From the NCBI GenBank assembly GCA_031279085.1, contig JAITJD010000009.1, positions 23,763-87,762 of the forward strand: DNA of 64,000 nucleotides. Reading direction: 5' to 3'. Below are positions 495 to 39,164 of the stretch, in pieces. Positions within the stretch are counted from its first letter, which is position 1; each line of letters starts with the position of its first letter. The DNA is from Rickettsiales bacterium (GTDB taxonomy: Bacteria > Pseudomonadota > Alphaproteobacteria > Rs-D84). A model generated the notes under the pieces. The model did no database searches. It was not told the origin of the DNA and saw only the letters and a list, made by a program, of their open reading frames with translations. A program made the translations under genes and the position numbers.

Positions 495-2129
495 TTATAT
501 GTCCGATAGTTTTTGCAGCCTTTCTCGCGACTTTGAGATTTCGGTGTCGATGGCTTCAATTCTGGCGCGCGTCGATTCGTCGCCGGATAACAGTTTGTTT
601 AAAATCTCTTTTTTTTCAGCCAGCAGTTTTTCCAAATATTTTTTCAGTTTTAAGGATACTATGAATTTTTCTGAGGCGGAAAAATTCATGTATGCGGCGG
701 TTTCCGCCGCATAGGGAGAATTCATCATATTCAGTCCGGACAAGAATTCGGAATATTGCTCTGCCAATTCAGGATAGGTTTCTATTATAAAACCCAAGGT
801 ATTTTTTGTAATAGAATCAACTTCCGGCAGCGGAACATGCGCCTTTTGCTCCGCGCCTTTTGCTTTTTTCCAGTTATGCCATTGGTTGAATTTTCTCGAA
901 TCGTATTCTTTGGAAAATTCGCCGCGCAATGAAGAATCTGTTATCTTTTCAAGTTCTTTATTTAAAAATTTTTCGGCCTGCGCCCGCCCGCCCGGCGTGG
1001 ATACAAGATAATTTTTGTTGACGATATTCCATAGAAAATCAACAAGCGGAGCCGAGTCTTTCATAATTTCTTTCATTTTTTGCTTGCCGTCCGGCATTTT
1101 CAATATGTCGTCCGGGTCTTTGCCGCCGGCGACGAACGCGAATCTTATGTCGGAATTGTCGCGCATGAACGGCAGCGCGATTGAGCACGCGCGCGCCGCG
1201 GCCTTTTGTCCGGCTGCATCCCCGTCAAAGCAGAAAGTTATGTTTCGGTTAAGCTTGCATATAATCGCGATATGGTCTTCGGTCAGCGCGGTGCCCAGCG
1301 GAGCCACAGTTTCGGGAAATCCGTGAAGCTGCATTTGAATCGCGTCGATCTGACCCTCCACCACAATAGACCGGTTTGCGCGGTGTATCGCGTCGCGCGC
1401 AAAGTTCAGGCCGAACACAGTTTTTCTTTTGTGAAACATCTCCGTGTCCGCGGTGTTCATATATTTTGGCTCGCTGCCGTCCAAGCTGCGTCCGGAAAAC
1501 GCGATGATTTGGCCGGAAGGATTGAATATCGGAAACATCAGCCTGTCGCGGAAAAAATCACGGTTTCCGTATTCTCCGCGGCGGACAAGCCCTGTGGCTG
1601 ACAGCTTGTCGAATTTTATGTTTGCGAATTTGTTTGTGATTATGTTGTTTTTCGGGGCATAGCCCAGTCTGTATTTTTTTATCGCATCCGCGCTGAATCC
1701 GCGTTTTTTTATATACTCCAAAGCATGCGCGCCGTCTGCTTCGAAAAGTTTTTGCTGATATGTTTTAGCCGCGTTTTCCGTTATTTCGATATAAGATTCT
1801 TCGCGCGCGACTTGCTCCGGCGGCTTCGGCTTGTAATCCGGGACTTTCAAACCCGCCTGCTGCGCAAGCTCCGCGATGGCCGTCTTGAAATCCATATTTT
1901 CCGATTTCATGACGAAGGAAATCAGGTCGCCGTGCTCGCCGCAGCCAAAGCAATGGTAGAATCCCTTTTCTTCGTTGACGGAAAAACTGGGCGTCTTTTC
2001 ATTATGAAAAGGGCAGCATCCCCAATAGTTCTGACCTTTTTTTATCAGCGGAACGCGGCGCCCGACAACATCCACAATCGATAGGCGCGCCCGCAGTTCG
2101 TCTGTAAAGTTGTTGTTATAGTTCGCCAT
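495..2129 (-). CDS. dnaG: DNA primase DnaG
   Basis: CHC2 zinc-finger CCPFHNEKTPSF...HCFGCGEHGD, Toprim-like core EGQIDAIQM, 544 aa. Confidence 0.9.
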   Translation of the reverse strand: MANYNNNFTDELRARLSIVDVVGRRVPLIKKGQNYWGCCPFHNEKTPSFSVNEEKGFYHCFGCGEHGDLISFVMKSENMDFKTAIAELAQQAGLKVPDYKPKPPEQVAREESYIEITENAAKTYQQKLFEADGAHALEYIKKRGFSADAIKKYRLGYAPKNNIITNKFANIKFDKLSATGLVRRGEYGNRDFFRDRLMFPIFNPSGQIIAFSGRSLDGSEPKYMNTADTEMFHKRKTVFGLNFARDAIHRANRSIVVEGQIDAIQMQLHGFPETVAPLGTALTEDHIAIICKLNRNITFCFDGDAAGQKAAARACSIALPFMRDNSDIRFAFVAGGKDPDDILKMPDGKQKMKEIMKDSAPLVDFLWNIVNKNYLVSTPGGRAQAEKFLNKELEKITDSSLRGEFSKEYDSRKFNQWHNWKKAKGAEQKAHVPLPEVDSITKNTLGFIIETYPELAEQYSEFLSGLNMMNSPYAAETAAYMNFSASEKFIVSLKLKKYLEKLLAEKKEILNKLLSGDESTRARIEAIDTEISKSRERLQKLSDI

Positions 2130-2163
2130 TTTATTTTAATTTTTCAGATTTGCAAATCTGAAA

Positions 2164-4524
2164 TTATTTCCTGCTCCATGCTTTTTTTGCGGCCGGCTTT
2201 TTGTTGTTTATCAATTCGGCGGCCTGTTCCAAGGTCGGCTGTTCTTTGACGGATACATTTACTTTGTTGCTGGAAACATAAGCGCCGTACCTGCCGGTGG
2301 CGTAATAAAATATTTCCTTTCCGCTTGCCGGGTTTGTGCCCAAAGACACAGCCTCTGCTTTTTTATTTTCTCCCGATAGCAGCTCTTTCGCGATTTCCAA
2401 GGTGATGGTTTCGGCCGTGTATTTTTTCGCCGATGCGTTTTTATTGCCGTCCGTTATATACGGGCCGAATCTGCCGATTTTAAAAGAAATTCCGTCGCCT
2501 AGGTCATGCGCTGAAGTCCGCGAACCAAGAGCCTTGTCTTTTTCGGAATCCCCGTCCGCCGCCTGTTCGCTGACAGCCGCCATGTTTTTTATGAATTTGC
2601 AATCCGGGTAATTAGAGCATGACAAAAACGGGCCGAATTTTCCAAGCTTCATGATTATCGAACCTCCGCATTCCGGGCATTTTTCGCCCGCTGCTGCTGC
2701 GATATGCGCTTTCATGCTTTCGTTCAGCGCGTCTATGATTTCCGTTGTTTTGATGTCTTTTGCAGCGTCTATCATTTTTTGCGCCGGCCGCCAGAAGCTT
2801 TCCAGCGCGGGAATTTTCTTTATCGCGCCGTTCGATACATCGTCCAGGGCGTCTTCTGTCTTGGCGGTAAAGTTTACATCCACCAAATCCGTGAAATATT
2901 TCTGCAAATAAGCGGCGATGACCCATCCGCCGCCGGTCGGCTTAAAGCGGCGCTGCTTGTCTTGATCCACATATTTGCGGTCGACGATTGTGGACATAAT
3001 TGTCGCGTATGTGGACGGGCGCCCTATTCCCAGCTCTTCCAGTTTTTTAACCAAGGACGCCTCGGTATAGCGCGGCGGCGGCGCTGTGAAGTGCTGCTCT
3101 GGCAGCAGTTTTGTAATATCAATCTCATCGCCGACGGCCAGCGGCGGAAGTTTTGATTCCTTGTCGTCATCGGTGTCGTCTTTATCCTCCACATAAACTT
3201 TCATGAATCCGTCAAAGGTGCGTGTGCTGCCGGTTGCGTGGAATACGGCGACAGTTTGAGATTTGAGGTCTGAGGTTTGGATATCAACGTTTACCGAATC
3301 GAATTCCGCGTTGGTCATCTGGCAGGCGATTGTGCGTTTCCAAATCAAATTGTAAAGCTTTGCTTCGTCGCCGTCCAATGATTGGCCCGCGGTTTCAAAA
3401 TGAGTCGGCCGTATGGCTTCGTGCGCTTCCTGCGCGTTCTTGGATTTTGTTGCGTAAACATTCGGAGACTTCGGCAGAAAGGCGTCCCCGTATTCGCGGG
3501 CAATGAATCCGCGGATTTCGGAAACCGCGTCCGCGGCAAGGTTTGTCGCGTCCGTTCGCATGTATGTTATAAGGCCCTGTTCGTACAATTTCTGCGCGGC
3601 GGACATCGTTCGTTTGGAGCTGAAATATAATTTTCGCGCCGCCTCCTGCTGCAAGGTGCTGGTCGTGAAAGGCGCCGCCGGCCGGCGCGATACTTTCTTT
3701 TTTTCTAGGGCGGCGACAAATGCCGCCAATGGGGACCCAAGTGCGGGAATCGAAGACAAATTGTTGGCTGAAAGTTCTGAGATTTTAATTTCATCTGTCA
3801 GGGCGTTCAAAATTGAAGACATTTTTTCTTTGTTTTCAATTGTCATCTTGTCGATTTTTTCATCATTGAACTTCGCCAGCCGCGCCCGGAAAGAATTATC
3901 TTTAATCCGCGCCATGCGCTTTGCGTTCTGGCATAGCGCGTCCAGCGACCAATATTCCGTCGGCTTAAACGCTTCGATTTCACGCTCGCGGTCTACGACC
4001 AGTTTTACTGCGACCGATTGAACTCGGCCGGCGCTGCGCCCAAGATTCCGGCGCCACAGCAGCGGCGAGACCCCGAATCCGATCAGATAGTCCAGCGCGC
4101 GCCTGACAAGATAGGCGTCGACCAGATTCTGGTCTATCTCCCGCGGTTTTTCCAAGGCGGCCTGAATCGCCTTTTTCGTAATTTCATGAAACACGACGCG
4201 GTATACTTTTTTGCCCGCCAGAGCTTTTTTATCTTTCAAAATGTCCAGCAGGTGCCAGCTGATTGCCTCTCCCTCGCGGTCGGGGTCGCTGGCCAGATAC
4301 ACATTGTCCGCTTTTTTCAATTCATCGGTAATCAGCTTGATCTGCTTTTCCTTGCCGGGCATGATCTGCCACTTCATCGCAAAACCGTTGTCCGTGTCAA
4401 CGCTGCCATTTTCGGGAACCAGATCGCGCACATGGCCCACGGACGCCACGACGCGCCAGCCCGCGCCCAGATATTTTTCAATAGTTTTCGCCTTTGAAGG
4501 AGATTCGACAATCAGCAGATTCAT
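2164..4524 (-). CDS. topA: DNA topoisomerase I
   Basis: N-terminal Toprim MNLLIVESPSKAKTIEKYLG, TopA core, C-terminal Zn-ribbon CPECGG...CSNYPDCKF, 786 aa. Confidence 0.9.
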   Translation of the reverse strand: MNLLIVESPSKAKTIEKYLGAGWRVVASVGHVRDLVPENGSVDTDNGFAMKWQIMPGKEKQIKLITDELKKADNVYLASDPDREGEAISWHLLDILKDKKALAGKKVYRVVFHEITKKAIQAALEKPREIDQNLVDAYLVRRALDYLIGFGVSPLLWRRNLGRSAGRVQSVAVKLVVDREREIEAFKPTEYWSLDALCQNAKRMARIKDNSFRARLAKFNDEKIDKMTIENKEKMSSILNALTDEIKISELSANNLSSIPALGSPLAAFVAALEKKKVSRRPAAPFTTSTLQQEAARKLYFSSKRTMSAAQKLYEQGLITYMRTDATNLAADAVSEIRGFIAREYGDAFLPKSPNVYATKSKNAQEAHEAIRPTHFETAGQSLDGDEAKLYNLIWKRTIACQMTNAEFDSVNVDIQTSDLKSQTVAVFHATGSTRTFDGFMKVYVEDKDDTDDDKESKLPPLAVGDEIDITKLLPEQHFTAPPPRYTEASLVKKLEELGIGRPSTYATIMSTIVDRKYVDQDKQRRFKPTGGGWVIAAYLQKYFTDLVDVNFTAKTEDALDDVSNGAIKKIPALESFWRPAQKMIDAAKDIKTTEIIDALNESMKAHIAAAAGEKCPECGGSIIMKLGKFGPFLSCSNYPDCKFIKNMAAVSEQAADGDSEKDKALGSRTSAHDLGDGISFKIGRFGPYITDGNKNASAKKYTAETITLEIAKELLSGENKKAEAVSLGTNPASGKEIFYYATGRYGAYVSSNKVNVSVKEQPTLEQAAELINNKKPAAKKAWSRK

Positions 4525-4560
4525 ATTCGCGCCTTTTTCCGTTTATATTTATCAGTTTAT

Positions 4561-5706
4561 TCACACGCCCTTCGCGCTTAGCTGCAAGTCTTTGTGAATC
4601 CTTGCATTCTGGCAAAGCCCGAACCCCAGCATCAGGGACAGCAGGCTGCTGCCGCCGAACGACATAAGCGGCAGCGGCACGCCGACCGTCGGCATCAGTC
4701 CCAATACCATGGAAACATTTATAAAGTAATAAATGAAGAAGTTCAACATAAAACCAAAACACAGCAGCTGTCCGAATCTATTCCTGCAAGTTTTTGCCAT
4801 CCAGAACAGAGTGGCGATGATAATGCTGTATATCAGAATCAGTGAGATGGCGCCGATGAAGCCGAATTCTTCGCCCAGCATCGTGAAAATAAAATCAGTC
4901 TGCTTTTCCGGCAAAAAAGACTGCTGCGACTGCGAGCCGTGCATGTATCCCTTGCCGACAAGCCCTCCGCTGCCGAATGCTATTTTTGCCTGGTTTATCT
5001 GGTATCCGGATCCTTTGGAGTCATGTCCGGGATTGACGAAGGTTATGATTCGTTCTCGCTGATAGTCGTGCATGGCTCCAAACCATACCGCAGGCGCGGC
5101 CAGTATGGTCAGAATCATCGCGACAAGAAACCATTTTTTCCGCGCGCCCGTTATATAAAACATGCCTATTGTTATCATGCCCAGGGAAAGCGCCGTGCCC
5201 AGATCCGGCTGCGCCACGATTAAAATGAACGGCGCGACCAGCATGGCTGCGGGAATCAGATAATTTTTAAGTTCTGTGGATTCTTTCCAGTTCATCCAGG
5301 CAAAATATCGCGCCAAAGCCAGCACCAGCGCTATTTTGATGAATTCGGATGGCTGGAAGTGAAATAATCCAAAATCCAGCCAGCGCTGGGCGCCCATTCC
5401 GGTGTGCCCGATGAATGTTACCAGGACTATCATCAGCAGAGCAAAGCCGTAAATAAAGTATGCGGATTTAATCCATAATTTGATATTTAAAAAAGCGGCC
5501 AGAAAAAATACGCCAAGCCCGAGAATGATTTTGACGGATTGCGACAGCGCGAAAGGCCGCCATGCCCCGCCGCCGGCCGAATACAGAACAATTACGGAAG
5601 TGGCCAGAACAAGGCATATAGGCACAAACAGCGCCGGCGAGAACCGTTTCAGCTTTTCTGTAAAACTCATCATGTTCGCGTTTGATACGCGCGTTTGGTT
5701 AGCCAT
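4561..5706 (-). CDS. mrdB: Rod shape-determining peptidoglycan glycosyltransferase RodA (FtsW/RodA/SpoVE family)
   Basis: Polytopic membrane protein of about 10 TM segments with FtsW/RodA-like sequence. It sits immediately downstream of the PBP2 gene in a mreCD-mrdAB arrangement. Confidence 0.8.
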   Translation of the reverse strand: MANQTRVSNANMMSFTEKLKRFSPALFVPICLVLATSVIVLYSAGGGAWRPFALSQSVKIILGLGVFFLAAFLNIKLWIKSAYFIYGFALLMIVLVTFIGHTGMGAQRWLDFGLFHFQPSEFIKIALVLALARYFAWMNWKESTELKNYLIPAAMLVAPFILIVAQPDLGTALSLGMITIGMFYITGARKKWFLVAMILTILAAPAVWFGAMHDYQRERIITFVNPGHDSKGSGYQINQAKIAFGSGGLVGKGYMHGSQSQQSFLPEKQTDFIFTMLGEEFGFIGAISLILIYSIIIATLFWMAKTCRNRFGQLLCFGFMLNFFIYYFINVSMVLGLMPTVGVPLPLMSFGGSSLLSLMLGFGLCQNARIHKDLQLSAKGV

Positions 5707-33842: not shown

Positions 33843-34472
33843 TTATTGACCTGTATAATAGCAAGTTTGCATAAATTGCCAGTTTCCTGAATAATCGCTG
33901 CCATTAGGCGGCGAGGCATAGCATTTGCTTATTGTGGTATTATCTCCCGCGACGCTGGTTCCGCCTGTCGGGCAAATCTCGCAGCCGGAAGTTCCATTAT
34001 GGCTTAATCCATAATACCCCGCCGCACAACGATAGGTGGTTGAAGAGTTGCAAGTATTGCAGCTGCACGATTTGGTTGTCTTTTTCTGGTATCCTGTCCC
34101 GTATGCGCTCCAATCCGCATCGCTGGTGCAATTCATGCAGCCGGTGCAATTCGACTGGCAAATATTAAAATTAAAGGTGCAGCCGCTATAATTGATACTT
34201 TTTTGCGTCAAAACATAATTGGTTTGGCAAGAAGTGCACGTTATAACAGCAATACCGCCATCGAGATTGTAGCAGTTTTTTGAATAATACAAACAACCTG
34301 AAAGTTCAGGATTTACATCTCCGCCAACAGTAGTGGGGAAATAGTAGTCATTGATAACCGTTTCGCTGCCCATGCAGGCTAACGGGTTTGTGCAAGATGA
34401 TGCGGCAACGCATTGTCCGGTGATAAGAATTAACATGAATCCAAGAAAAAAACCACCCTTTGGATTAGGCAT
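33843..34472 (-). CDS. Cysteine-rich secreted protein (about 20 Cys in 209 aa, many CxxC motifs), hypothetical
   Basis: N-terminal signal peptide MPNPKGGFFLGFMLILITGQCVAASS, then repeated CxxC units (CTSC, CTGCMNC, CSCNTC, CEIC) and a Gly/Ser/Thr/Asn-rich composition. The region looks AT-richer by eye than its neighbours. Confidence 0.5.
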   Translation of the reverse strand: MPNPKGGFFLGFMLILITGQCVAASSCTNPLACMGSETVINDYYFPTTVGGDVNPELSGCLYYSKNCYNLDGGIAVITCTSCQTNYVLTQKSINYSGCTFNFNICQSNCTGCMNCTSDADWSAYGTGYQKKTTKSCSCNTCNSSTTYRCAAGYYGLSHNGTSGCEICPTGGTSVAGDNTTISKCYASPPNGSDYSGNWQFMQTCYYTGQ

Positions 34473-34523
34473 ATCGGGGGGTTCAAAATGTCGCAGAAAT
34501 CATGGATTTTAAAAAATAAAAAA

Positions 34524-34557
34524 ATGCCTAAAATAAACGGTGGTTTAGATTAGGCAT
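34524..34557 (-). terminator. Rho-independent terminator of the tripartite exporter operon
   Basis: Inverted repeat atgcctaa...ttaggcat; on the minus strand it is followed by a T-rich run (plus-strand A13 at 34511-34523). Confidence 0.5.
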
Positions 34558-34632
34558 ACATCTTTTGAAGCTATTCTATTGCTTTTTCATGGTTTTAGTC
34601 AACTAAATTCGTATAAAATATTTGAATATTAT

Positions 34633-35850
34633 TCATTCGTACCTCAGGCTGTCTATCGGATTTAGTTTTGCGGCTTTTATAGCTGGCATAACGCCGGACG
34701 ACAAGCCGACTACAATCGCCACGCTGACCGATAAGACCACGGGCCAAATGCTGAACGGAACGTTATATTCCAATATCAGTCGTCCGACCCCTTGCGATAA
34801 TCCGACCCCCAGCAGCAGACCGGCCATGGATCCGATAAAAGAAATTAATATAGATTCGGACAAAAACTGAATGATTATGTGAATTTCGCGCGCGCCGATG
34901 GCTTTTCTTATGCCTATTTCCCGCGTGCGCTCCGCCACCGACACCAACATCATGTTCATGATTCCGATAGAGCCGACCAGCAGCGAAACACCGGCAATCG
35001 CAATAAGCAGCAGTTTCATATAACCGGTCACAGTATTCATGGTTTCCATAACCTGTTTCATATCCATGATTTGAAAATCGTCCTCGTCCGTGTCTTTCAG
35101 TTTATGGCGTTCGCGCAGGATTGCCGTTATCTGCTCGGTCGCCAGCACATTGTCGGCGTCCGCATAAAGCTTCAGCGAAATCATGCCGACGCTTTCTGGG
35201 AAACGGCTGCCCTGCAATCGCTTTTTCAAAGTGGTCAGGGGGATTATTATCATGTCGTCCTGACTTCCCATTGCGGAATCTCCGCGCTCTTTGGTAACGC
35301 CGATAATCACAAAAGGAGTGTTTTGCACGCGTATAATCTCGCCCAGCGGATTTTCTGGCAAATCCAGCTCTCGGGCTGTTTTGGGTCCGATTATGGCGTA
35401 AGTGGACCCGTTGCGCACGGCAGACATGTCAAAAAAAGTGCCTTTTTCGATTTCTATATTCTGAACGGACACATAATCCGGATAAGCGCCCACCATGCTG
35501 GAAGACCAGTTTTTGTTTCCATAGATGATTTGTGCGGCGGCGTTTTGTATCGGGCTGACCGCGGCGACATCCGGCAGGCTGGCGATTACATCGGAATCGG
35601 AAATTTTCAATGTCTGGCGGTTTCCTGTTCTGACGCCGCCCGTTTGCGCCGCGCCAGCGCGAATCATGATTGTGTTCGTCCCCAGCGCCGAGAATTGGTC
35701 GCTTATCTGCTTTTGCACGGTTTCGCCGACCGCGACCATTATCACCACGGCCATAACGCCTATAATGATGCCCAGGACGGTCAGAAAAGACCGGATTTTA
35801 TTTCCGCTGATGGACAGCCAGGATTCTTTCAAGATATCGTTAAAACTCAT
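34633..35850 (-). CDS. ABC transporter permease, MacB type (periplasmic core domain plus FtsX-like 4-TM domain)
   Basis: 405 aa; N-terminal TM, a large periplasmic domain, and C-terminal FtsX-family TM helices (IGIRKAIGA motif). Confidence 0.85.
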   Translation of the reverse strand: MSFNDILKESWLSISGNKIRSFLTVLGIIIGVMAVVIMVAVGETVQKQISDQFSALGTNTIMIRAGAAQTGGVRTGNRQTLKISDSDVIASLPDVAAVSPIQNAAAQIIYGNKNWSSSMVGAYPDYVSVQNIEIEKGTFFDMSAVRNGSTYAIIGPKTARELDLPENPLGEIIRVQNTPFVIIGVTKERGDSAMGSQDDMIIIPLTTLKKRLQGSRFPESVGMISLKLYADADNVLATEQITAILRERHKLKDTDEDDFQIMDMKQVMETMNTVTGYMKLLLIAIAGVSLLVGSIGIMNMMLVSVAERTREIGIRKAIGAREIHIIIQFLSESILISFIGSMAGLLLGVGLSQGVGRLILEYNVPFSIWPVVLSVSVAIVVGLSSGVMPAIKAAKLNPIDSLRYE

Positions 35851-35891
35851 TTTTCAAAACCATGTTTTTTTATTGCGCCCGTCAGTTGTTT

Positions 35892-36611
35892 TTATAAATT
35901 CATTTCGTTTTTCGGGATTTTCCCGTCATAGTTTATGCGTCCGTCCCGGATATGAATCAGGCGGTCGGAATACTTCGCGATATCGAATTCATGGGTAATC
36001 ATGACGATTGTGATGCCCATATCATTGTTAAGCTTTTTGAAGAAATTCAAGATTTCATTGCCCATTTTGCTATCCAGCGCGCCGGTCGGCTCGTCAGCCA
36101 GGATAAGCTTTGGATCGCCGGCCAGCGCGCGCGCGATGGCCGCGCGCTGCTTCATGCCGCCGGACAGCTGGGTCGGCAGGTATGTTTCAAAACTGTCCAG
36201 CCCGACGCGTTTCAGCATTTCGCGCGCGCGGCGGACGCGTTCGTCCATGTTCATTCCGCGGTACATCAGGGGCAGCATCACATTGTCCAGAACCGACCGC
36301 TTAGACAGCAGGTTGAAGTTCTGAAAGACGAATCCGATATGCTCGTTTCTTATGACGGCCAGCTCGTCGTCGGTCATATTGGTGATGTCTTGGCCGTAAA
36401 GCTGATATGTGCCGGATGTCGGAGTGTCCAGCGCGCCGATTATGTTCATGCAGGTGGATTTTCCGCTGCCGGACGGCCCCATTATTGAAATAAATTCGCC
36501 GACCTTGATGTCAAAGGTCAGGTCGAACAAAACCTGCTGGCTGCCGCCCATTTCTATGGGGAAGCTTTTGCAGATTTTGTTCATTGAAATAATGTTTTTC
36601 TTTGGAGGCAT
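35892..36611 (-). CDS. ABC transporter ATP-binding protein (MacB/LolD-type)
   Basis: Walker A GPSGSGKST, signature LSGGMKQRAAIARAL, Walker B ILADEPTGALD, H-loop ITHE, 239 aa. Confidence 0.9.
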   Translation of the reverse strand: MPPKKNIISMNKICKSFPIEMGGSQQVLFDLTFDIKVGEFISIMGPSGSGKSTCMNIIGALDTPTSGTYQLYGQDITNMTDDELAVIRNEHIGFVFQNFNLLSKRSVLDNVMLPLMYRGMNMDERVRRAREMLKRVGLDSFETYLPTQLSGGMKQRAAIARALAGDPKLILADEPTGALDSKMGNEILNFFKKLNNDMGITIVMITHEFDIAKYSDRLIHIRDGRINYDGKIPKNEMNL

Positions 36612-36612
36612 T

Positions 36613-37821
36613 TTATCTCCGTCCGTCGGCCATGCCGCCGCCGCCCATTCTCATTCCAGTGTTGCCGGTTGCGGCCTGGCCGAGTTTGCCCGTGATTATT
36701 TTATCGCCGTTTTGCAAGCCGTCGGCGATAATTTCCGTTTCAGTCGCCGTAATCAGACCCTTTCCATAAGGAACCAGGATTACTGTCTTGCCGCGCTCTA
36801 TCGCCAAATGCGTTTTTGGCGTGGCATCGCCAGGATTATCAACTATTCCGTTAAAAGTGCGGGTCAGAAACGCCGAATTCGGAGATTTCCAAACATCGTT
36901 CTTTTCATTTATCATGATCGTCACAAAAGCCGTCATTCCGGGCATAAGGCGCAGATCGGAATTATCCAGGTTTATTACGACGGTATAAATGACGACATTT
37001 GAAGAAGTTGTCGGCGACAGGCGGATTTGCCGGACTTCGCCGTTAAATATCTGACCCGGGTAGGCGTCCACGGTGAATGTTACAGACTGTTTTTCCTTTA
37101 TCATTCCAATATCAGCCTCGGACACGGAAGTTTCAATCTGCATCTGGGACAAGTCTTCGGCAATTTCAAACAGATCGGGCGTCTGAAAGCTGGCGGCAAC
37201 CGTCTGGCCTTTGTCCACCTTGCGGGAAATTACAGTTCCGTCCACCGGAGATATAATGGTGGCATAGCCGAGATTGGTCATCGCTCGGTCGTATTGTGAT
37301 TGAGCGCGTTTTACCGCTTGTTCCGCCTGTTCGTAGTTTGTTTGCGATTGCTCCATTTCCGCGCGGGCGATAAAGCCGTCGGAATAAAGCGTCTTGTTGC
37401 GGTTAAATTCGTTTTTGGCGTAGTTGCGCTGGGATTCGCTGCTGACCAGCGATGCCTTGGCCTCATCAACCGACGCCTGCAAGACCAGGGGATCGATAGT
37501 CAGCAGAACATCGCCCTTTTTGACCTTGGAATTGTAATCGACGAATATTTTTTCAATATTGCCGCTGACTTGGCTGCCGACCTTGATTGTATTCAGCGGG
37601 CGGATTTCTCCGGTTGCTGTCACAACCTGGCGCAAGTTGCCGCGCGTAATAGCGACAGTGGCATATTTGTTTTCATTTGTTCCGGAACCGCCAAAAATAA
37701 AGGTCAAAGACAAAATGGCGAAAATCAGAATCAGCAGCCACCATTTAAGGCGCCAGATTTTTTTCAAAATCTTTCCCGCAAATCCTTTTTTCTTTATTTT
37801 TTCTTCGTTATTTTTTTTCAT
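36613..37821 (-). CDS. Periplasmic adaptor subunit (HlyD/MacA membrane-fusion protein family)
   Basis: N-terminal TM anchor, a coiled-coil hairpin, and lipoyl and beta-barrel domains, 402 aa. There is a 4-nt overlap with the upstream TolC-like gene. Confidence 0.85.
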   Translation of the reverse strand: MKKNNEEKIKKKGFAGKILKKIWRLKWWLLILIFAILSLTFIFGGSGTNENKYATVAITRGNLRQVVTATGEIRPLNTIKVGSQVSGNIEKIFVDYNSKVKKGDVLLTIDPLVLQASVDEAKASLVSSESQRNYAKNEFNRNKTLYSDGFIARAEMEQSQTNYEQAEQAVKRAQSQYDRAMTNLGYATIISPVDGTVISRKVDKGQTVAASFQTPDLFEIAEDLSQMQIETSVSEADIGMIKEKQSVTFTVDAYPGQIFNGEVRQIRLSPTTSSNVVIYTVVINLDNSDLRLMPGMTAFVTIMINEKNDVWKSPNSAFLTRTFNGIVDNPGDATPKTHLAIERGKTVILVPYGKGLITATETEIIADGLQNGDKIITGKLGQAATGNTGMRMGGGGMADGRR

Positions 37822-39164
37822 TTACTGTCTCCTATCTCCGATTTTATATCACCGATGGCCAGCGCGACAGCGGCGCGCTTTGTGAATAAGTCGTATTTTG
37901 CGGCGTTGTTCTGCTTTTGAGCGCTGGCCAGTTCGCCTTGAGCCGTCTGCCAGTCCAGCATAGTCGCGCGGCCGACCTTGTACATTCCGGCCGTTACTTT
38001 TTCGCTTTCGGTTGCAGATTTTAACAAAGTTTCTGTCTGGCGCAGCACGGTCTGGGCGGTTTTATAGTTCTGGTATGCGGTGAATATGTCCAAAGCCACC
38101 GAATCGACGGCCGCCCGCTCAGTTTCTTTGGCGCGGTCATAGTTCGCTTCGGCCGCCCGCATCCCGTATAAATTCGCAAAGCCCGCGAAAATAGGCATGG
38201 ATGCGCGAATTCCGACGCTGCCGCTTATCTTGTCAGTTCCCGGATTATAGGCGCTGGACGAAACATCATTGTATGATATGGAGCCTGTTGCGGAAATACT
38301 TGGCAGATTGCTTAAAAAGACGCTGTTGCGCCGGTGCCATGCGGCATCTTTGTTGGCGGTCGCGCGCAGCAAGTCCGGCCGAGATTTTTCGGCGGCGTTT
38401 ATCAGCTCGTCAATGCTTTTATTTTCTGTTGATTTTCCAAAATCGGACGGCATGTCCGCGATTTGTATATTTTGGTTTGCCGGAAAGGATAATTTGGAAA
38501 GCAGAGTGCCTTTGGCCACTTCGCGATTGTTTTTCGCGCGCTCTAATTCCAAATCCCGACTGGCAAGCGTGGTGTCCGCCTTTAAGACATCAGCTCTGGC
38601 GACGCTGCCGGCCTTGAATTTTTTATTTGCGGTGTCCAGCGCGGTTTGCGCCACTTTTTTCAGCGACTCTGCGGTCGCGACATCCGCGTCAGCTGTCAGC
38701 AGCGCGTAATAAGCGCCTATGACGCCATAGACATAATTTTGAACTGATTCATCATAATCGAATCCTGTGGAGCGCCATACGGCGGCCAGCTGATTCAGAT
38801 CCGACAATCGTTTGCCGAAATCGAAAATCAAATAAGATGCGGACAAAGACGCGCTCTTAGTCCATTCGTCAGACCATTCTTTGTTTTGATAGTTTTTTGT
38901 CATGCTGGCGCTGGCTGAAATATTGGGCAGATAAGGCGCGTATCCCGCGTTCTTGTTCAGGCGCGCGGCCTCCAAAGCCAGGTATGATGCCGATGTCTGC
39001 GGATTTCTGCAAAGTCCAAGCTCAATGACTTGTTGCAAGGAAAGCTCTTCAACCGGCACATTCTTCTGCGAATAGCAATCTGATGCCGCATTTGCCGCAA
39101 AAGAACAAAGGACAAAAAATAAAGAATAAAAAAAACTGCTTGGTTTCATAATAATCCTCTCCAT
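37818..39164 (-). CDS. TolC-family outer membrane efflux protein
   Basis: Signal peptide followed by two TolC-like repeats of alpha-helical and beta segments, 448 aa. It is the first gene of the minus-strand operon. Confidence 0.8.
   Translation of the reverse strand: MERIIMKPSSFFYSLFFVLCSFAANAASDCYSQKNVPVEELSLQQVIELGLCRNPQTSASYLALEAARLNKNAGYAPYLPNISASASMTKNYQNKEWSDEWTKSASLSASYLIFDFGKRLSDLNQLAAVWRSTGFDYDESVQNYVYGVIGAYYALLTADADVATAESLKKVAQTALDTANKKFKAGSVARADVLKADTTLASRDLELERAKNNREVAKGTLLSKLSFPANQNIQIADMPSDFGKSTENKSIDELINAAEKSRPDLLRATANKDAAWHRRNSVFLSNLPSISATGSISYNDVSSSAYNPGTDKISGSVGIRASMPIFAGFANLYGMRAAEANYDRAKETERAAVDSVALDIFTAYQNYKTAQTVLRQTETLLKSATESEKVTAGMYKVGRATMLDWQTAQGELASAQKQNNAAKYDLFTKRAAVALAIGDIKSEIGDSK

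Follow-up and report, generated by a model that had tools for sequence, protein, structure and literature searches.

A large family of cysteine-rich exported proteins with variable heads and a conserved tail in small-genome gut Alphaproteobacteria

The closest described counterparts of the protein reported here are the Ephrin_rec_like (GCC2_GCC3; PF07699) repeats of Chlamydomonas Mst1, ELAPOR1 and thyroglobulin, together with the related TNFR and laminin-EGF modules, the VSPs and high-cysteine membrane proteins of Giardia, the SAPLIP proteins (saposins A-D, NK-lysin, amoebapores and SP-B) and, as a functional analogy, the chlamydial envelope proteins OmcA/OmcB. In bacteria, saposin-like domains are uncommon. 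Autotransporter passengers, VSG and VSP are examples of displayed proteins, in which a variable N-terminal part is usually combined with a conserved C-terminal one, the opposite of what is seen in polymorphic toxins. The gene investigated here (33843-34472, minus strand) lies in a 64,000-nucleotide stretch of a Rickettsiales bacterium (assembly GCA_031279085.1, contig JAITJD010000009.1, positions 23,763 to 87,762), referred to as the window. Its product belongs to a large and hitherto undescribed family, present in multiple copies and restricted to small-genome gut Alphaproteobacteria, including Candidatus Enterousia of the GTDB order Rs-D84. From the sequences of its members we infer that this sizeable and previously undescribed family is made up of disulfide-rich extracellular modular proteins with unusual and testable properties.

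The protein and its family

The gene and the regions of its product are as follows.

33843..34472, minus strand: complete coding sequence, 209 residues plus stop, with an ATG start; hmmsearch with the hidden Markov model (HMM) of the family gives E 3.6e-52.
34401..34472, minus strand: predicted signal peptide, approximately residues 1-24, MPNPKGGFFLGFMLILITGQCVAA (then SS), from the sequence and a heuristic scan of the family.
34158..34394, minus strand: variable 'head', residues 27-105, with 8 cysteines and of a beta-hairpin type in the AlphaFold2 model; head identity to the same-genome paralogs is 19-33%.
33846..34157, minus strand: conserved 'tail', residues 106-209, with 11 cysteines, from alignments; predicted local distance difference test (pLDDT) 85-98, and 92-95% identity among the three same-genome paralogs.
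33921..34031, minus strand: Ephrin-receptor-like (GCC2/GCC3, TNFR-like) cysteine unit, residues 148-184, RCAAGYYGLSHNGTSGCEICPTGGTSVAGDNTTISKC, from hhalign; holds C149, C164, C167 and C184.

The protein is identical to MDR2412841.1 (LBD50_01355), which is labelled 'hypothetical protein' by NCBI in a metagenome-assembled genome (MAG) named 'Rickettsiales bacterium'. Its 20 cysteines make up 9.6% of the residues against a mean of 1.2% for the 37 other genes of the window (binomial probability of at least 20 by chance ~2e-12), and Thr, Gly, Ser, Cys, Asn and Tyr together account for 60% of the sequence. With the signal peptide, these values bear out a preliminary description of the gene as encoding an exported 209-residue protein with about 20 cysteines and an unusual composition. 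That description had also spoken of CxxC-type repeats. All four motifs that it quoted are present (CTSCQTNY at 79-86, CTGCMNCTSD at 109-118, CSCNTCNSS at 136-144 and CEICPTGG at 164-171), and the protein has three CxxC motifs, but there are no true internal repeats: hhalign of head against tail, of one half of the tail against the other and of other segments against the repeat alignment all gave probabilities below 25%. The protein ends ...TCYYTGQ without a hydrophobic C-terminal segment. Seven N-glycosylation sequons were counted by eye against ~4 expected from the composition, a surplus judged not to be meaningful.

A profile search of 1.84 billion cluster representatives (50% identity clusters) returned 924 relatives at E<=1e-3, of which 458 also pass E<=1e-10; almost all are 160-240 residues long. 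The family is defined by two alignments (A1 and A2) and an HMM built from A2. A search with the tail alone found 366 proteins, none of the best 120 of which carries a Pfam domain or an informative name, and no description of a cysteine-rich head-and-tail family was found in the literature. In species-representative genomes there are 59 family loci in 22 MAGs, of which 20 go under Proteobacteria, Alphaproteobacteria or Rickettsiales (with one 'Candidatus Enterousia' among them), one under 'bacterium' only and one under Muribaculaceae, the last probably being mis-binned. Where a source is given for these MAGs, it is termite, mouse, roe deer or human gut, and the sole source-naming record among the only 15 loci confirmed by a scan of JGI metagenomes is a human gut metagenome. 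On the fetched loci the family HMM identified 96 genes, with up to 12 per genome in genomes of roughly 1 Mb; these counts are lower bounds that cover the pattern-matched loci and their flanks. The MAG of the window has three copies, the other two being LBD50_00165 and LBD50_03935, and there is one copy inside the window itself. No relatives were seen in viral contigs, and a phage origin was ruled out on this basis. Bacteria of the Candidatus Enterousia and Rs-D84 type occur widely in the guts of humans, mice, ruminants and termites, have genomes of <1 Mb from which many biosynthetic pathways, including lipid synthesis, are absent, have no respiratory chains, are reported to be without standard transporters and are predicted to depend on partner cells (PMC12306168).

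The window protein matches the family profile over its full length, including the tail signature, C-x2-C-x2-C ... W ... TGYQKK ... C-x-C-x2-C ... YRCAAGYYG ... NGTSGC-x2-CP ... GTSxAG ... CY ... CYY near the C-terminus. Over all pairs of members the mean identity is 21% for the head and 49% for the tail. The paralog P0002 from the genome of the window and its ortholog P0004 from another MAG have heads that are 65% and tails that are 71% identical; as the P0002 head is close to that of the ortholog in another species while the other heads of its own genome are far from it, the head types would appear to predate the species. The tails of the window genome, on the other hand, seem to have been recently homogenised or recombined. 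General concerted evolution of the tails was considered and ruled out as a rule, the effect being weak outside this genome. Between apparent orthologs the heads diverge somewhat faster than the tails (head/tail identities of 0.70/0.81 and 0.51/0.64), and with orthologous heads 50-90% identical they look like conserved types, not hypervariable antigens. Longer family members have either a duplicated head unit or a duplicated first part of the tail.

In about 12 members of the local pool the head is entirely different, being helical and saposin-like. The head of P0028/P0243 scores 26.3 bits against Pfam SapB_2 (cut-off 21) and aligns over its full length with human saposin D (E 1.6e-6); saposin C and surfactant protein B are matched as well. 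Further heads of this kind were found with jackhmmer, including those of two tandem genes in locus L022 (6957-7571 and 7647-8315). The relatives with saposin heads include P0028/P0243, P0055, P0134, P0049, P0125, P0053 and P0114, and these have the same conserved tail. No SapB domain is present in the window protein itself by either Pfam or jackhmmer. The occurrence of saposin-like heads on the same tail shows that the tail is a generic carrier of exchangeable extracytoplasmic modules.

AlphaFold2 gave a pLDDT of 65 with 11 sequences and of 82 overall with 145, rising in the latter case to 85-98 over residues 60-209, and exceeding 90 in the tail, with the first ~30 residues of the head remaining of low confidence. 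The model is all-beta, with long hairpins at residues 60-82, 86-107 and 128-149, and Foldseek found no match to it in the PDB. Scanning the window protein against Pfam and NCBIfam at E<=10 also gave nothing, and the family consensus had no Pfam hit either. In a search of PDB sequences with profiles from A1 and A2 only chance matches were obtained (an antibody CDR3, 'CARGYYGSS', and a non-significant match to perlecan laminin-EGF). The preliminary description had likened the protein to furin-like or VSP-like repeats. This likeness is not supported, as Pfam gave nothing up to E<=10 and the protein has neither tandem repeats nor a C-terminal transmembrane segment or CRGKA tail. It had also named a match to a metallothionein or a high-potential iron protein (HiPIP) as a finding that would overturn it, and none was seen in Pfam or NCBIfam at E<=10 or among PDB sequences.

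A more limited resemblance to a eukaryotic disulfide-bonded module is nevertheless seen in the tail. Pfam PF07699 gave weak to borderline matches in four of 145 relatives (best E 2.5e-5), and the ELAPOR1 TNFR-like model in three; in P0074 the PF07699 match covers residues 144-180, which is a conserved segment of the tail, at 10.6 bits against a cut-off of 23.1. When the corresponding segment of the family tail (residues 148-184) was aligned by hhalign with the Ephrin_rec_like repeats of the solved structures of Mst1 (8tx1), ELAPOR1 (9vqm) and thyroglobulin (6scj), the probability was 77-90% and the score 27.9-28.6 over 33 columns with the cysteines matching. Column-shuffled templates scored 9.7 +/- 2.0 (maximum 18.2, with 0 of 100 reaching the real score) and a reversed template 13. 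The general likeness to eukaryotic disulfide modules that had been proposed therefore narrows to residues 148-184, with the rest of the protein unmatched, and the protein would appear to contain one Ephrin-receptor-like unit set in otherwise unmatched sequence. Such a unit could stem from ancient common descent or from convergence.

The proposal that the gene was recently acquired from a eukaryote, to act as a host-mimicking decoy or adhesin, is largely refuted by these observations and now seems extremely improbable. It could draw on the eukaryote-like composition, on the single Ephrin_rec_like-type unit and on the base composition of the gene, with a GC content of 44% and a GC content at third codon positions (GC3) of 45% (57 +/- 6% in neighbouring genes), both of them 1.5-2 standard deviations below the neighbours. 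However, the low GC3 is partly imposed by the Cys-, Asn-, Tyr- and Thr-rich composition, and the same shift is seen in a second cysteine-rich gene of the window. Only ~35 residues resemble the eukaryotic module in a protein that is itself without a Pfam hit, and the gene lies between conserved housekeeping genes. Moreover the family is large, old and lineage-specific, with bacterial members that have diverged and number in the hundreds, and with several paralogs in a genome (three in that of the window), none of the members being named as eukaryotic and no eukaryotic relatives being seen in the tail-only search.

Cysteine pairing, export and proposed role

As C21 sits in the signal peptide the mature window protein has 19 cysteines, all of which fall in cysteine columns conserved in the family, with C149, C164, C167 and C184 invariant. 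Among 222 members the mature cysteine count is 15, 17, 19, 21 or 23 in 186; it is odd in 197 and even in 25, many of the latter being fragments. An even number in the head is combined with an odd number in the tail in 161 of 197 members. The tail typically has 11 cysteines, the number being 9 where both C112 and C138 are absent, and members with a saposin head combine 6 cysteines in the head with 11 in the tail. The window protein follows the same parity rule with 8 and 11. The numbers shift by pairs, as disulfide bonding would predict, and the odd count in the tail implies one conserved unpaired cysteine there. For the window protein we infer four disulfides in the head, five in the tail and one unpaired tail cysteine. 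Co-occurrence of cysteines gives weak hints of the pairs C112/C138, C79/C82 and C33/C67. The free cysteine is not revealed by the sequences with even counts, although the following position is a candidate.

33861..33863, minus strand: codon of Cys204, in the C-terminal CYYTGQ, from the position of the last cysteine and the parity analysis.

The last cysteine of the family is always 2-7 residues from the C-terminus and slides between CYYxx and SYYCx; it is this shift of position that makes Cys204, with low confidence, a candidate for the unpaired residue. A minority of members (P0068, P0123, P0146, L042 7770-8498, L046 7836-8510 and P0002) extend beyond the CYY end with short, Pro-rich and acidic sequences such as GGEIVELEPVTP or PPLPPLPDIT repeats, P0002 ending ...CYYTSSFNENPIITDPGLVL.

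Binding of zinc or iron by the CxxC clusters in place of disulfide bonding, which had been put forward as an alternative, is very doubtful. The three CxxC motifs and the four invariant cysteines (C149, C164-x2-C167 and C184) could provide ligands, and both the anoxic habitat and the lack of Dsb genes in the sampled DNA, discussed below, would suit such a protein. Against this, steps of two cysteines with a constant odd remainder fit disulfides and not sites of three or four cysteines, and the invariant cysteines align with disulfide-forming cysteines of the Ephrin_rec_like repeats in solved extracellular proteins. The saposin heads found on the same tail are disulfide-dependent domains, and no metallothionein, HiPIP or zinc-ribbon hit was obtained at E<=10.

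In the N-terminus, MPNPKGGFFLGFMLILITGQCVAA, a positively charged n-region and a hydrophobic core are accompanied by a cleavage site of the small-x-small type, consistent with export of the protein via Sec and with a cut by signal peptidase I that would probably fall after VAA. Signal-peptide-like N-termini were found in 200 of 224 family members, as scored by a crude heuristic and not by SignalP. The sequence AASSC27 of the window protein also fits a relaxed PROSITE-like lipobox pattern, but such a pattern occurs in only 44 of 224 relatives, and a signal peptidase I site appears more likely. Lipidation of C27 was considered as the source of the odd cysteine count and rejected for the family as a whole because the odd cysteine maps to the tail and not to the head; in addition, most members have a non-permitted residue before the first mature cysteine, with E, D, K, V or Q at position -1 in many relatives.

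We tentatively favour the reading that the window protein is a disulfide-stabilised modular protein, displayed on the surface or released, that probably mediates contact with host or partner cells through heads borne on a tail. After export by Sec, oxidation in the periplasm would form the disulfides, and the protein would then arrive at the cell surface or in the medium. Stalk, anchor or docking module would be the common role of the conserved tail, which might be attached by an intermolecular disulfide through the unpaired cysteine, and different heads would provide different binding specificities for structures on host or partner cells. Such contact would serve bacteria that are metabolically dependent.

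Several observations weigh against this reading. No homologs of DsbA or DsbB, whose presence the preliminary description had proposed to check, were found with the E. coli proteins as queries in the window and 60 related loci (877 kb), and a scan of the same DNA for thioredoxin motifs gave no candidate, this being a small part of each genome. DsbB normally uses the respiratory quinone chain. The Rs-D84 bacteria are reported to be without the respiratory chains that DsbB would normally need (PMC12306168). No outer-membrane anchor, beta-barrel, family-wide lipobox, known sorting signal or route across the outer membrane was found for the family. Finally, the near-identity of tails is strong only in the window genome, the tail identity in other genomes being 0.56 within a genome and 0.51 between genomes.

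The periplasm is the default destination of exported proteins in diderms. A periplasmic envelope component, such as a protease inhibitor, a structural protein or a redox or thiol buffer, with a disulfide-rich fold for stability in the gut, would accordingly agree with a Sec signal peptide and signal peptidase I site as the only export features seen and with the failure to find an outer-membrane sorting feature or linkage to a secretion system. This is nonetheless rather improbable. Up to 12 or more diversified copies with interchangeable heads in a genome of ~1 Mb are hard to fit to internal housekeeping, the saposin-like heads suggest membrane or lipid targets, and the conserved unpaired cysteine and conserved extreme C-terminus suggest attachment or sorting.

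The saposin-like heads might also point to a released nutrient-scavenging shuttle, comparable to a hemophore, in which the heads would take up cargo from host or partner cells (lipids in the case of the saposin-like heads) and the tail would dock on one cognate outer-membrane receptor. Near-identical tails such as those of the window genome are what would be expected if they co-evolve with a single receptor, and Rs-D84 bacteria are reported to lack lipid and other biosynthesis as well as standard transporters (PMC12306168). We consider such a shuttle unlikely: no receptor or transporter gene is linked to the family genes in the 60 loci, most heads, including that of the window protein, are without a recognisable ligand-binding fold and no export route was identified. 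FabD and AccC are moreover present in the genome of the window, so that lipid auxotrophy is unproven there.

The SAPLIP family includes pore-forming antimicrobials, and a secreted toxin or antimicrobial family would therefore have heads as effectors, the saposin-like ones being membrane disruptors of the amoebapore or NK-lysin type, and the tail as a targeting or stability module against prey or competitors. The saposin-like heads are genuine homologs of saposins, and the family is multi-copy with variable modules, as this would require. But no immunity-like gene is found consistently next to the family genes, the variable part lies at the N-terminus, which is the reverse of the typical polymorphic toxins, and the head of the window protein is not saposin-like and has no hit to a toxin family, which together make a toxin quite improbable.

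The preferred reading of contact through tail-borne heads can be extended to a bolder proposal, possible but on the unlikely side, in which >1% of the genes of these bacteria would form a counterpart of the cysteine-rich surface repertoires of anaerobic gut parasites. Here swappable heads for binding or as effectors, including saposin-like heads able to extract lipids, would be set on a disulfide-knotted tail of a previously unseen fold that is covalently tethered or oligomerised through its unpaired cysteine, and the proteins would be the main interface for attachment to host or partner cells and for feeding on them.

Neighbouring genes and transcription signals

The stretch of chromosome covered by the window is unremarkable for a diderm bacterium, and the cysteine-rich gene lies outside any island. 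The window includes genes for replication and repair (DnaG, TopA, MutS and a recF-like gene), cell shape and the wall (RodA, PBP2, MreC and MreB), translation and RNA (PheT, IleS, MetG, GidA, RsmG and PNPase) and partition (ParA and ParB), as well as for FabD, AccC, ThyX and LptD. An operon encoding TolC, a membrane-fusion protein, an ABC ATPase and a MacB permease is also present, with the MacB-like permease gene upstream of the cysteine-rich gene and the following signals between or near the two.

34510..34557, minus strand: hairpin ATGCCTAA...TTAGGCAT that encloses an inner 5-bp stem and leads into a U-run; it separates the MacB-like permease gene from the cysteine-rich gene.
34573..34602, minus strand: promoter-like TTGACT-18-TAGAAT, with 10 of 12 matches and sigma-70-like, directly upstream of the hairpin.

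The preliminary description had placed the gene immediately after the terminator of the exporter operon. A 13-bp interrupted hairpin with a U-run is indeed present at 34510-34557 and is probably the intrinsic terminator of that operon, but it was not called by a consensus terminator scan, because of its long loop. As the promoter-like site is upstream of the hairpin its relevance to the cysteine-rich gene is uncertain. The U-run is followed after ~37 nucleotides by the ATG, without a clear Shine-Dalgarno sequence; expression might depend on read-through or on a promoter that overlaps the terminator, or the hairpin might be a leader element.

The possibility that the cysteine-rich protein is a substrate of the adjoining MacAB-TolC-type exporter was rejected since the genetic linkage is not conserved. 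An exporter was found within 8 kb of a family gene at only one of the 59 other loci (L015), and there it is on the opposite side and the opposite strand. In this locus (1141-5686; a CANBCI01 MAG from another study) the MacB, ABC ATPase, membrane-fusion and TolC operon is near-identical to that at 34633-39164 of the window, with E down to 1e-220, while the genes flanking the operon differ between the two, which shows that the neighbourhoods of the cysteine-rich genes are locally rearranged between close relatives. No recurring neighbour gene family or conserved operon partner was seen among the 60 loci.

The second cysteine-rich gene of the window (44613-45590, plus strand) encodes an orphan exported protein of 325 residues with 30 cysteines and a good lipobox, FACAVAGC. 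It has no Pfam hit, does not match the HMM of the 209-residue family and has a low GC3 like the gene of that family in the window. It is found between the recF-like gene and a gene for a 160-residue protein; in L015 it is a member of the 209-residue family that adjoins recF. A gene that lies directly upstream of the TolC-like one but on the other strand (39413-42979, plus strand) encodes an 1188-residue protein with no cysteines and no Pfam hit, in which central hydrophobic segments rich in Ala, Gly and Ile have long charged regions on either side; this may be a lineage-specific membrane or effector protein. A protein of the DUF5662 family (14386-14931, minus strand; E 3e-26), conserved and uncharacterised, is encoded between the IleS and HhH-GPD glycosylase genes in a housekeeping block.

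Comparison with known systems

As a dispersed, multi-copy, exported and modular family, these proteins are an obvious candidate for the interface of the Rs-D84 and Enterousia-type bacteria with their partners, and they offer concrete, clonable targets. They would add a new bacterial disulfide-rich domain, without a Pfam entry or a structural match, and would document the fusion of saposin-like domains to a bacterial module. As these bacteria are reported to have no respiratory chain, and no Dsb genes were seen in the sampled DNA, the folding of proteins with a predicted nine disulfides presents a biochemical puzzle.

The unit at residues 148-184 has the register C-x2-G-aromatic ... C-x2-C-P-x-G ... 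S ... G ... C in common with the Ephrin_rec_like repeats, and like the proteins that carry these repeats the window protein would be extracellular and disulfide-rich, with beta-hairpin modules. Unlike them it is bacterial and has a single unit and not a tandem array, in the first half of which there is one cysteine (YRC) and not CxxC; it also fails the Pfam model, and the other ~150 residues have no counterpart in these proteins.

The Giardia VSPs and high-cysteine membrane proteins, with VSG as an analogy for the division into head and tail, are similarly multi-copy proteins of a gut-dwelling and metabolically dependent organism. They are exported, rich in CxxC and in Thr, Ser, Gly and Asn, and have a variable N-terminal part on a conserved C-terminal part, as the present family does. 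The family is unrelated to them in sequence (no Pfam VSP hit) and differs in having no C-terminal transmembrane helix and no CRGKA tail, in being much smaller (~185 residues when mature) and in having heads that look like conserved types; the likeness drawn here is one of organisation and composition and not of switching or mutually exclusive expression.

The SAPLIP proteins have counterparts in some members, which have a true saposin-like head, while the head of the window protein is of the beta-hairpin type. Saposins are not normally fused to a tail of this kind.

The chlamydial proteins OmcA/OmcB have no known sequence similarity to the family, and the window bacterium keeps its genes for peptidoglycan synthesis. 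They are nevertheless, by analogy of function, cysteine-rich envelope proteins of a host-dependent bacterium that are joined by intermolecular disulfides, and the unpaired cysteine predicted in the tail would allow members of the present family to be linked in the same manner.

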